Part shown: positions 27,335 to 63,490 of the stretch, piece by piece
Position numbering within the stretch: position 1 is the first letter of the stretch
How the letters are laid out: the number at the start of each line of letters is the position of its first letter
DNA from: a phage
Strand: one strand, 5' to 3'
DNA length: 64,000 nt
Sequence record: PZ386957.1
Position numbers and translations under genes: made by a program
Notes under the pieces: generated by a model
What the model saw: only the letters and a program-made list of their open reading frames with translations
What the model was told of the DNA's origin: nothing
Databases searched by the model: none

Positions 27335-27342
27335 TATTTATA
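27335..27342 (-). promoter_or_regulatory. T4 late-type promoter TATAAATA
   Basis: Exact TATAAATA on minus strand about 34 nt upstream of the 27301 start. Confidence 0.45.
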
Positions 27343-36806: not shown

Positions 36807-36992
36807 TTAGAAATATGCAATATAGTTTGCCAGTCCTACAGAGTCATCATTCGGCATTGCTTTTACTGCCAGTTCAAATCCTGCTTCAACTTTCTGTTTA
36901 GCGGATTCTTCGTTATAACCCCAGATCACCAGAATAGCTACTACGTTTTCTTTGCTTACTGCTTTCAGTGCTTTAGTGATGCGACGTGCCAT
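36807..36992 (-). CDS. Hypothetical protein
   Basis: 61-aa ORF after promoter/leader 37039-37068. Confidence 0.45.
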   Translation of the reverse strand: MARRITKALKAVSKENVVAILVIWGYNEESAKQKVEAGFELAVKAMPNDDSVGLANYIAYF

Positions 36993-37038
36993 AATTTGAT
37001 TCTCCTAGTTAGAAAGTGTATCTCGTTTCGATGGGTGT

Positions 37039-37068
37039 ATTATGCTATAGACCGGATCTGGTGTCAAC
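37039..37068 (-). promoter_or_regulatory. Promoter TTGACA-18-CATAAT with CATCGAAACGAGA leader
   Basis: Minus-strand read upstream of 36807-36992. Confidence 0.55.
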
Positions 37069-37091
37069 AACTTTTTTAAAAAAATTTAGGT

Positions 37092-37120
37092 AATAAAAAA
37101 GCCACTCCGAAGAGTGGCTT
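37092..37120 (-). terminator. Intrinsic terminator capping the ORF-free region
   Basis: AAGCCACTC-TTCG-GAGTGGCTT then TTTTTTATT. Confidence 0.7.
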
Positions 37121-37269
37121 ATAGGGAAGGTAGCGAATCTTCCTTGTCTCCAACCTGCTAGCGGCCTAGCAAGTGAATGCTTTAGCGTACCGGATTACCC
37201 CCATACGCTGTAATAAATGCGGCTAGGTGACGTCCAAATCATTCTAACCGCGCTGTTTTTAGTTCACTA
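37121..37269 (-). ncRNA. Putative structured small RNA (ORF-free, terminator-capped)
   Basis: About 150 nt with no ORF on the coding strand; several local hairpins; ends in intrinsic terminator 37092-37120; T4 carries stable RNAs in the analogous region. Confidence 0.25.
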
Positions 37270-37488
37270 TTATTTATATAGCTTTCTATCGCTACGTTTC
37301 CGGTCTTCTTCCTTGATACAATTAAATGCATCAAACAGACACATACCGCTGATAGTGAACATGATCAGGTTTTCGACGATATCCCACGTTTTAGCCCCTG
37401 TGCAGATATTCCAAACAGTCATAAAAGCAAATAGTGCAGAAGAGATCACAAGCATGATACTTGCTAAGATATAAAAAGTCATTTTCAT
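37270..37488 (-). CDS. Small membrane protein (2 TM)
   Basis: 72 aa hydrophobic. Confidence 0.5.
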   Translation of the reverse strand: MKMTFYILASIMLVISSALFAFMTVWNICTGAKTWDIVENLIMFTISGMCLFDAFNCIKEEDRKRSDRKLYK

Positions 37489-38599: not shown

Positions 38600-38628
38600 A
38601 TCTTACTACCCCCGTTTCATGTTGTCAA
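38600..38628 (-). promoter_or_regulatory. Promoter TTGACA-17-TAAGAT, -10 inside inverted repeat GGGGGTAG...TACCCCC
   Basis: Minus-strand read upstream of the 56-aa peptide gene. Confidence 0.6.
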
Positions 38629-41144: not shown

Positions 41145-41349
41145 GTTAATACCTTCTTAAATGAAAATATTTATCAAATAGTATCGCTTCGCGAGTGCCG
41201 GAGGCACTATTTTTGTTATTATTTTTGATGATTAATTATTAATCAAACGTGTATCTTTCAGGATAATAAAGATCACCGTTTTGGTGCTTTTTTAATCACT
41301 ACCTGTAAATTTATACAGTAATAAATAAAAGGGATAAACCGTTAGAGTA

Positions 41350-41610
41350 TTGCTTATGTCAGAAGATATTTTGTTAAAACTCTATGATCGATTAGATAAC
41401 GAGTTAGCAACATTACGTGGTGAAGTTCTCTATTTGTCTAAATGTAATCAGGATCTGCTTAAGCAGATTGCAGAAAGGGATGACCAAATAAAATCCCTTT
41501 CCGGTGCATTACGTGATCGTGACAAGGCATTAGAGATTTTACAGCGTGTAACCAATAAAGAAGAATTGAAAGATTTTCTACATGGTTATGCTCACGCCAT
41601 CGATCTATAA
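41350..41610 (+). CDS. Small coiled-coil protein (opposite strand to neighbours)
   Basis: 86 aa, heptad-rich; followed by hairpin terminator 41610-41636. Confidence 0.5.
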   Translation: MLMSEDILLKLYDRLDNELATLRGEVLYLSKCNQDLLKQIAERDDQIKSLSGALRDRDKALEILQRVTNKEELKDFLHGYAHAIDL

Positions 41611-42980: not shown

Positions 42981-42988
42981 TATAAATA
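42981..42988 (+). promoter_or_regulatory. T4 late-type promoter TATAAATA (gene 53)
   Basis: Exact TATAAATA about 24 nt upstream of the gene 53 ATG. Confidence 0.6.
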
Positions 42989-54355: not shown

Positions 54356-54391
54356 TTTATAAATAACATATCATAACAAGAGGATTTAATA

Positions 54392-62630: not shown

Positions 62631-62656
62631 TAAATACTCATAAAAGGAGGTATATT

Positions 62657-63490
62657 TTGTTCGCATGGTCATATAATTCGTCGATTCGACGATATATTGT
62701 ATTGCTAGGTAATTTATTCTCCGGCGTACAGATTAAAAGGGTGCGTAGTGATGGTGAGCGTTATATTAAAGTTCCTATCACCTATGCGAAGAAAGAAAAA
62801 TTCATGATGAGTCTGGACAAATACAACAATATTGCAAGCGAAGAAGATGTTGCAAAGGTAGAAACAATTCTACCGCGTATGTGTCTTTCTTTGATCGATA
62901 TGTCTTACGCTCAGAACTTTAAAACCAATATTGCTAATAAAACAACTCCACGTTATACAGAAAATGGAATAAAGAGCATAACTCAATATAATCCGGTTCC
63001 GTATAAGTTTACGTTTGAGTTAGGGATTTATACTAGACATGAAGATGATATGTTTCAGATAATTGAACAGATTCTTCCTTATTTCCAGCCTCATTTCAAC
63101 TGTAAGATTAAAGAACTACACGGTAATGATGTATGGATCGACCGAGATATTCAGGTCACTATTAGCTCTATTACTCCAGATGAACAGGTAGGCGAAGATA
63201 AGTTTTCTCGTCGCCGTCTTGAGTGGACCATTATGTTTGAGTTTATCGGGTTTATATATCCTCCTGCAACCGACGTTAAAGGAGAGATCAGGACGATTTA
63301 TCTTGATTTTCATGCTAATTCCCGTGAATTAAATCCTAGCGGTAATTTTGAATCGGTGGACCATGAGGTGGTGAGTCGAAATGTAGATCAGAGCAAATGG
63401 GATGGAAATAGCCGAGAATCATATTCTAGTGATATTCCTGTACCAGTTGCACCGACTCCACCGGGTCCACGTATTGTAAGAGAATTTTAA
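62657..63490 (+). CDS. 15: Tail sheath stabiliser/completion protein gp15
   Basis: FAWSYNSSIRRY..PITYAKKEKFMM..VAKVETILPRM..DDMFQIIEQILPYFQPHF match T4 gp15; probable TTG start at 62657 after RBS GGAGG. Confidence 0.85.
   Translation: MFAWSYNSSIRRYIVLLGNLFSGVQIKRVRSDGERYIKVPITYAKKEKFMMSLDKYNNIASEEDVAKVETILPRMCLSLIDMSYAQNFKTNIANKTTPRYTENGIKSITQYNPVPYKFTFELGIYTRHEDDMFQIIEQILPYFQPHFNCKIKELHGNDVWIDRDIQVTISSITPDEQVGEDKFSRRRLEWTIMFEFIGFIYPPATDVKGEIRTIYLDFHANSRELNPSGNFESVDHEVVSRNVDQSKWDGNSRESYSSDIPVPVAPTPPGPRIVREF

Follow-up and report, generated by a model that had tools for sequence, protein, structure and literature searches.

What is encoded by the longest gap between genes in a phage DNA whose median gap is 10 nt? 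The DNA analyzed here, a stretch of 64,000 nt (the window), originates from a Krischvirus, an RB49-like T4-type coliphage, and the genes around the gap are located on the minus strand. The gap comprises 277 nt (36993-37269) and reaches from the stop codon of a 72-aa ORF (37270) to the next ATG (36992). For its ranking the real genes were used, with a spurious plus-strand ORF set aside. Its unusual length had already been remarked on in the original prediction, in which the region was proposed to be a small RNA ending in a strong terminator. A stretch of approximately 175 bases in this gap, called the element here, is probably a phage small RNA or a structured 3' UTR. Explanations at the level of the DNA, of a protein product or of neutral sequence are unlikely.

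Genomic context and the PeSL cassette

The 1-kb stretch around the element shows 93-94% identity to 59 Krischvirus genomes (GEC-3S, Phi1, RB49, JSE and others) and matches nothing else. Each of the 59 sequenced Krischvirus genomes carries the element, including those of several phage-therapy isolates. A homologue of dmd is located upstream of the locus and a homologue of 55.3 downstream. The cluster of tRNAs and stable RNAs in T4 sits between e.8 and ipI/57B, and the analogy to this T4 region drawn in the original prediction therefore does not hold. In the direction of transcription, the locus contains the following features.

37270-37488, minus strand: upstream 72-aa ORF of the RB49ORF118c family (phrog_15168), final gene of an early operon of which the element is the 3' UTR
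37271-37278, minus strand: TATAAATA, a perfect match to the T4-type late-promoter box, overlapping the codons TAT-AAA-TAA that end the 72-aa ORF
37252-37269, minus strand: A-rich single-stranded 5' leader, TAG TGA ACTAAAAACAGC, unpaired in the folds and with one variable column (A/G)
37219-37251, minus strand: hairpin 1, GCGGTTAG/CTAGCCGC, 8 bp, internal loop and 4 bp, with the loop UUGGAC
37184-37209, minus strand: hairpin 2, GCGTA/TACGC, with a 7-bp lower stem and a hypervariable apex
37149-37177, minus strand: hairpin 3, GCTAG-GCCG-CTAGC, with an 8-bp core (CUUGCUAG/CUAGCAGG), the loop GCCG and a weaker 4-bp extension
37125-37143, minus strand: hairpin 4, GGAAG/CUUCC, with the 9-nt loop AUUCGCUAC, preceded by the purine-rich linker GGAGACAA
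37093-37120, minus strand: intrinsic terminator, a 9-bp stem with a cUUCGg loop (37120-37099) and a U6AUU tail
37039-37067, minus strand: PeSL early promoter of the sigma70 type, TTGACA (37067-37062), N17 and CATAAT (37044-37039), matching the consensus at 11 of 12 positions
36807-36992, minus strand: downstream 61-aa ORF (RB49ORF117c, DUF7421), driven by the PeSL early promoter

In the records of the relatives, the gap is annotated only with a terminator and a promoter, together with two mutually inconsistent automatic CDS calls. The known part of the gap is its 3' portion of approximately 125 nt, the PeSL cassette. The 5' portion of approximately 150 nt, with the four hairpins, is unannotated. 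PeSLs (promoter-early stem-loops) are composite terminator-promoter cassettes of the phages RB49 and phi1, which mediate the modular shuffling of ORFans (Arbiol et al. 2010, PMC2839356; Comeau et al. 2014, PMC4122927). Positions 37039-37120 combine a stem-loop terminator, an AT-rich tract and a near-consensus sigma70 promoter in an intergenic and repeated unit, as defined for PeSLs. The order is the same as in RB49 and phi1, with the terminator (37120-37099), an AT-rich spacer and the promoter (37067-37039) in a hyperplastic region, and the 3' end of the element is the PeSL stem-loop. In contrast, the four hairpins and the TATAAATA box are single-copy and are not mentioned in the two PeSL studies (PMC2839356; PMC4122927).

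The strong terminator that the original prediction had placed at 37092-37120 was confirmed, its T-run reaching to about 37093. It had not been recognized there as one half of a PeSL promoter-terminator cassette. In GEC-3S and G37-3 it is annotated as a terminator. It is the sole terminator after the operon and the element, with none in between, and forms the common 3' end of the early operon and of the putative late RNA described below. The promoter half of the cassette, annotated as a promoter in GEC-3S, lies outside this RNA and marks the downstream boundary of the module. It recurs elsewhere in each genome or locus. The four hairpins do not belong to the repeated PeSL unit, as only the query positions 223-271 (the promoter) give secondary matches and a covariance model of the element detected no second copy in the window. 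The other PeSL terminators of the window are located in gaps of 66-109 nt and are not accompanied by such a hairpin region. New at this locus is the four-hairpin candidate RNA, while the attached PeSL cassette, as well as phage-encoded or 3'-end-type sRNAs as a kind, were already known.

Many metagenome and Logan contigs (L012, L016, L020-L024) end 237-285 nt past the stop codon of the ORF, at the PeSL promoter, which fits with a dispersed repeat that breaks assemblies. In one lineage (L017-L022, L024) the tetraloop UUCG of the terminator is replaced wholesale by GAAA on an identical stem; both loop classes are extra-stable.

Early promoters are located at 38628 and 39079, and no minus-strand terminator lies between them and the element. 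Transcripts of the early operon must therefore carry this stretch as their 3' UTR. The GC content of the element (0.44-0.47 compared to 0.35-0.42 nearby) is only mildly raised and uninformative. Most Krischviruses share the downstream DUF7421 protein of 61 aa (36807-36992, minus strand) with 100% identity. Homologues with 72-80% identity occur in about 100 T1-like siphoviruses of approximately 50 kb (vojen, tiwna, ISF002 and others), and this small ORFan module is thus common to myovirus and siphovirus families.

Folding of the four hairpins

The minimum-free-energy fold of the minus strand contains all four hairpins, and these are the four local stems named in the original prediction. For the 185-nt region including the terminator, a folding energy of -66.4 kcal/mol was calculated (z = -4.64), which was reached by none of 200 shuffled sequences. 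Without the terminator the energy is -48.7 kcal/mol (z = -3.13) and 1 of 200 shuffles was as good. The antisense strand folds no better than its shuffles (z = -1.02), and the fold of the sense strand includes six G-U pairs. When the transcribed strands of the ten longest gaps of the window are compared, the gap of the element belongs to the most structured ones. Folding better than that of shuffles was also seen, on one strand, for two further long gaps that are poor in ORFs, 62631-62803 (plus strand, z = -3.2) and 41145-41355 (minus strand, z = -2.6).

The tetranucleotide CTAG, which is generally rare in enterobacterial and coliphage DNA, occurs three times in approximately 70 nt of the element (CCTAGCC, GCTAGGCCGCTAGC). 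All three copies are located within stems (37154-37177 and 37219-37230, minus strand).

The fold could not be assigned to a known RNA family. No tRNA or tmRNA gene was detected by ARAGORN in the whole window, in agreement with the original prediction, for which no tRNA cloverleaf could be fitted by eye. The Rfam scan suggested along with it (Rfam 15) gave no match at the gathering thresholds in the 64 kb. The best scores below threshold were obtained for STnc370 (24 bits, gathering threshold 54), RNAI (22.8 bits, threshold 47) and EF3314_EF3315 (22.3 bits, threshold 100), and reflect only the layout of hairpins followed by a terminator. A blastn search with word size 11 in 50,697 phage records revealed, outside of Krischvirus, only terminator-like matches of 25-32 nt. 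Similar sequences are absent from 5,426 E. coli genomes and from the GTDB genomes.

Three further assignments were considered. The 3' tail is U6AUU, but directly 5' of the terminator (CCCUAUAA) there is no U-rich sequence, so that no classical Hfq module is apparent. A decoy of the CsrA type was rejected, as four GGA motifs are present in 173 nt and about three are expected. The third candidate was a degraded PeSL promoter inside the element, based on the resemblance of GTTGGAGACA to GTTGTTGACA. It was dismissed because a consensus scan found no promoter-like site in 37093-37269 and the element shows no similarity to other PeSLs.

Conservation, covariation and coding potential

For the analysis of conservation, loci were collected from 11 GenBank/IMG records, from 14 contigs encoding relatives of the upstream ORF and from 3 metagenome contigs, the latter being the only loci added by a metagenome scan. 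Compared to the window, the element differs by 1.7-5.6% in the relatives. The adjoining 72-aa ORF differs by 12-20% overall and by 19-33% at third positions, and the promoter/5' UTR on the other side of the element by 7-12%. The element is thus a local peak of conservation, and its flanks on either side are more divergent. In 18 distinct lineages, variation was seen in 24 of the 177 columns of the element. For the adjoining ORF the counts are 40 of 62 at third codon positions and 32 of 124 at first and second positions. Where two lineages diverge by more than 0.1 at the third positions, the element changes at 0.12 times that rate. Conservation in relatives, on which the proposal of a small RNA had been staked, was found throughout, with a constraint much stronger than that of the flanks in all relatives.

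Part of this contrast could reflect a mosaic, recombining history of the region rather than selection. In its strongest form, this would mean that the element is a neutral spacer which appears conserved through a recent spread of the segment among the sampled phages. The region is indeed mosaic, the 61-aa gene next to the element likewise shows about 99% conservation and all relatives belong to one genus. Nevertheless, a recently spread neutral segment seems highly improbable, as much more divergent sequence flanks the element on both sides, the variation is concentrated at loop and apex positions and is compatible with pairing in the core stems, and the folding energy is exceptional among the gaps of the window.

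The variation is distributed unevenly over the element. Fifteen of the 24 variable columns are located in the apex of hairpin 2 (8), the loop of the terminator (4) and the tail (3). Hardly any variation is seen in hairpins 1, 3 and 4, including their loops, or in the linkers. In hairpin 1, 11 of 12 pairs are invariant and the remaining one changes from U-A to U-G, by which pairing is kept on the sense strand only. The core of hairpin 3 is unchanged across 15 distinct sequences, and a C-to-A change breaks one pair of its outer extension. Hairpin 4 shows a single change from A-U to G-U and is otherwise invariant. In the stem of hairpin 2, a G-C pair is converted to A-U via G-U intermediates and an A-U pair to G-U. 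All 13 sequence variants of this hairpin fold as the same hairpin (-10.3 to -15.7 kcal/mol), with GNRA-type loops (GUAA or GUGA) and indels of 1-2 nt at the apex in several lineages.

The apex of hairpin 2 (37190-37203, minus strand) is a peculiarity of its own. Its 13 variants include 1-2-nt indels in a G-run, and they toggle a GATC site as well as the GUAA and GUGA loops. The apex differs even where the third positions of the adjoining ORF are identical, e.g. between L008 and L009 (4% compared to 0). Such variation could arise from a hot spot of slippage or from diversifying selection on a surface.

The consensus fold of the alignment is identical to the fold of the single sequence. Pairing is retained in 99.4% of the cells of the alignment, compared to 29-45% if the partners are slid by 1-3 columns. 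Only one pair is changed on both sides, G65-C88, which becomes A-U through G-U intermediates. One-sided changes convert three other pairs to G-U, and one G-U pair to A-U or G-C. The one clear break of a pair is that in the weak outer extension of hairpin 3, and two lineages lose an apical pair of hairpin 2 and refold in a shifted register. The observed covariation score was reached by 9 of 500 column shuffles. The covariation is formally weak because divergence is low and most pairs never vary. The family of the 72-aa ORF comprises only 7 clusters among 5.8 billion proteins, all of them at least 76% identical, and for this reason no distant relatives are available for covariation. Folding with covariation, as recommended with the original prediction, thus fits an RNA paired on the sense strand but is too sparse to prove the fold.

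One contig deviates from this picture. In L027 (OQVL01013596.1, positions 1-60), hairpin 3 (ending in GGAGACGAGGAAGA) is followed by 49 nt of unrelated sequence up to the end of the contig, so that hairpin 4 and the terminator are missing (window position ~37138 onwards). Either a real rearrangement or a chimeric assembly may account for this break.

Sequence conservation that includes the loops would also be expected for an element acting at the level of the DNA, e.g. as homology for recombination or module shuffling beside the PeSL, as a protein-binding site or as a replication site, with the hairpins as incidental palindromes. A PeSL directly adjoins the element, and PeSLs are recombination sites (PMC2839356). 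In addition, the ORF on one side is present as a divergent allele, and this divergence ceases close to its stop codon. However, the fold is specific for one strand (z = -3.1 for sense and -1.0 for antisense), including the six G-U pairs, and only one copy of the element exists, no paralogue having been detected in the window. Moreover, the one-sided changes in the stems give G-U pairs on the sense strand, which are A-C mismatches on the other strand, and pairing is thus maintained on the sense strand only. A function of the DNA itself is therefore considered very unlikely.

The coding potential of the element was also considered. ORFs with an ATG start reach at most 15 codons on the coding strand, which confirms the limit given in the original prediction, and a TTG ORF of 25 codons runs through the terminator. 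An ATG which is common to all lineages opens the frame MIWTSPSRIYYSVW, with 15, 19, 24 or 51-65 codons depending on indels of 1-2 nt. The versions of 51-65 aa occur in RB49, GEC-3S and Brandy, and CDSs of 30-48 aa are annotated in Delraymugoa and FL20. These observations would be compatible with a gene for a small protein that annotation has missed, or with what is left of a decayed ORF. Against this speaks that the length and the C-terminus of the product shift with the indels and that every substitution in the frame is non-synonymous. The ATG has no Shine-Dalgarno sequence and is base-paired inside hairpin 1, the long versions cross both terminator and promoter, and the two annotated CDSs disagree in frame or strand. 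The CDSs called here by annotation pipelines are almost certainly spurious, and we regard a protein-coding origin of the element as extremely improbable.

The late-promoter box and possible transcripts

The last codons of the 72-aa ORF contain the box TATAAATA (37278-37271), which is followed by ATAGT and thus combines the two sequence features of a T4-type late promoter, the box and an A/T-rich segment downstream. In T4 late promoters the box occupies positions -13 to -6 (PMC2988020). In the 64-kb window only 4 copies of TATAAATA are present on both strands, compared to 6.6 expected from shuffled sequences, which suggests that stray copies are avoided. The other three copies are all intergenic and located 25-35 nt upstream of the Shine-Dalgarno sequence and ATG of a gene.

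27335-27342, minus strand: box upstream of an rI-like gene (lysis inhibition)
42981-42988, plus strand: box upstream of a gp53-like gene (baseplate wedge)
54358-54365, plus strand: box upstream of a gp9-like gene (baseplate/tail-fibre connector)

These are the kinds of genes that are served by late promoters. The box at 37278-37271 is the only one of the four copies that is not followed by a protein gene; it heads the conserved ORF-free block. A single copy thus departs from the canonical late-promoter position, whereas shuffles predict 6.6 copies in total. It is invariant in 20 distinct relatives, and the variation in the C-terminal codons of the 72-aa ORF ends abruptly at its 5' edge. In one metagenomic relative, L026 (MAVA01000028.1, 3325-3345), it is lost by a 14-nt deletion (TATATAAATAATAG, window positions 37266-37279) which also removes the TAA-TAG stops, and the ORF ends there with ...KLN* at a downstream TAA. 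All four hairpins and the rest of the element are intact in L026, and the promoter is therefore dispensable, at least for the retention of the element.

As judged from its sequence, the consensus box upstream would offer a concrete route to a discrete transcript of approximately 172 nt, with a predicted start at ~37265, about 6 nt past the box, and an end at ~37093. We propose, with moderate confidence, that the element is a functional, genus-specific structured RNA which early in infection forms the 3' UTR of an mRNA and later is produced as a separate transcript of ~172 nt. On the minus strand, the module would consist of the late-promoter box (37278-37271), the A-rich leader, the four hairpins and the terminator (37120-37093). 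Early in infection, the stretch would be transcribed as the structured 3' UTR of the operon ending in the 72-aa ORF. Once gp55-dependent late transcription has taken over, a discrete RNA from ~37265 to ~37093 would be initiated at TATAAATA. Since the loops and linkers of hairpins 1, 3 and 4 are near-invariant, recognition may depend on sequence and not on shape alone, either by base pairing to a target RNA or by binding of a protein, which would go beyond the mere protection of a 3' end. From the original prediction of a small RNA, the non-coding character, the structure of the sense strand, the strong terminator and the constraint are retained; the sparse covariation and the loss of the box in L026 weigh against it.

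A live alternative, which is compatible with a small RNA and does not exclude it, is that the element serves the upstream early operon as a structured 3' UTR. In the narrower sense, the element would act only in cis as a 3' UTR, by protection from exonucleases, by providing processing sites or as an aid to termination, and TATAAATA would be an inactive by-product of the codons TAT-AAA-TAA. A stray box with a terminator 170 nt downstream would be harmless and could simply be tolerated. The element is co-linear with the operon of the early promoters and shares its terminator, the hairpins of L026 are kept without TATAAATA, and the searches for targets described below remained at chance level. 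On the other hand, the other PeSL terminators of the window do without a hairpin region, invariance extends to the loops and linkers as much as to the stems, beyond what simple exonuclease blocks would require, and conservation begins exactly at TATAAATA, the other three boxes all being located at late genes. A purely cis-acting 3' UTR is therefore possible but somewhat doubtful.

A more specific form of the proposed structured RNA would be a dedicated small-RNA gene of RB49-like phages with its own gp55-type late promoter, which is switched on after DNA replication and acts in trans on RNA or protein of the host or the phage, the fast-evolving apex of hairpin 2 possibly serving as a surface for recognition or evasion. 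We consider such a gene rather unlikely. In the literature searched, no description was found of a trans-acting regulatory RNA driven by a late promoter in the T4 family. The best antisense matches of the element within the window are 11-12 nt long, which is the level expected by chance. Silencing of the PeSL-driven early mRNAs via their conserved leaders was rejected, since the mean duplex energy was -22.0 compared to -23.9 for shuffled sequences and 92% of the shuffles were at least as good.

T4-type phages are among the best-studied viruses, and to our knowledge hardly any genes for non-coding RNAs have been described in them beyond tRNAs and the enigmatic RNAs C and D of T4. Like the putative RNA of the element, the latter (rnaC and rnaD; species 1 and 2) are non-coding, small and structured and belong to a T4-type phage. 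However, they lie in the tRNA cluster and are co-processed with tRNAs, whereas the element is located between the dmd and 55.3 homologues in a window with no tRNA genes. Homology was rejected, as the covariance model of the element, run with filters off, reached at most 6.3 bits in T4 positions 69000-74500, with nothing on rnaC or rnaD. The RNAI of ColE1 (RF00106) shares with the element a series of stem-loops that ends in a terminator and follows a single-stranded 5' tail. With 22.8 bits against a gathering threshold of 47, and no plasmid-origin context, this is a resemblance of layout only.

Bacterial 3'-end sRNAs with a promoter inside the upstream ORF, e.g. MicX, have been described (PMC9438474). 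As in sRNAs of this type, the putative promoter of the element overlaps the end of an ORF, the RNA would correspond to the 3' UTR and use the intrinsic terminator of the mRNA, and its size would be similar (about 170-190 nt). In contrast to them, the promoter would be a late promoter of the phage gp55 type under temporal rather than stress control, and no homology was detected. DapZ and MicL are further 3'-end sRNAs with an ORF-internal promoter. If the element is expressed from the late promoter, RNA-based regulation would be added to the early-to-late programme of this phage family. If the proposed structured RNA is real, the 'hyperplastic' ORFan regions would hold constrained non-coding modules besides shuffled genes.

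At the junction of the ORF and the element, the 72-aa ORF is closed by three different stop codons in frame and in tandem, TAA-TAG-TGA (37264-37272, minus strand).
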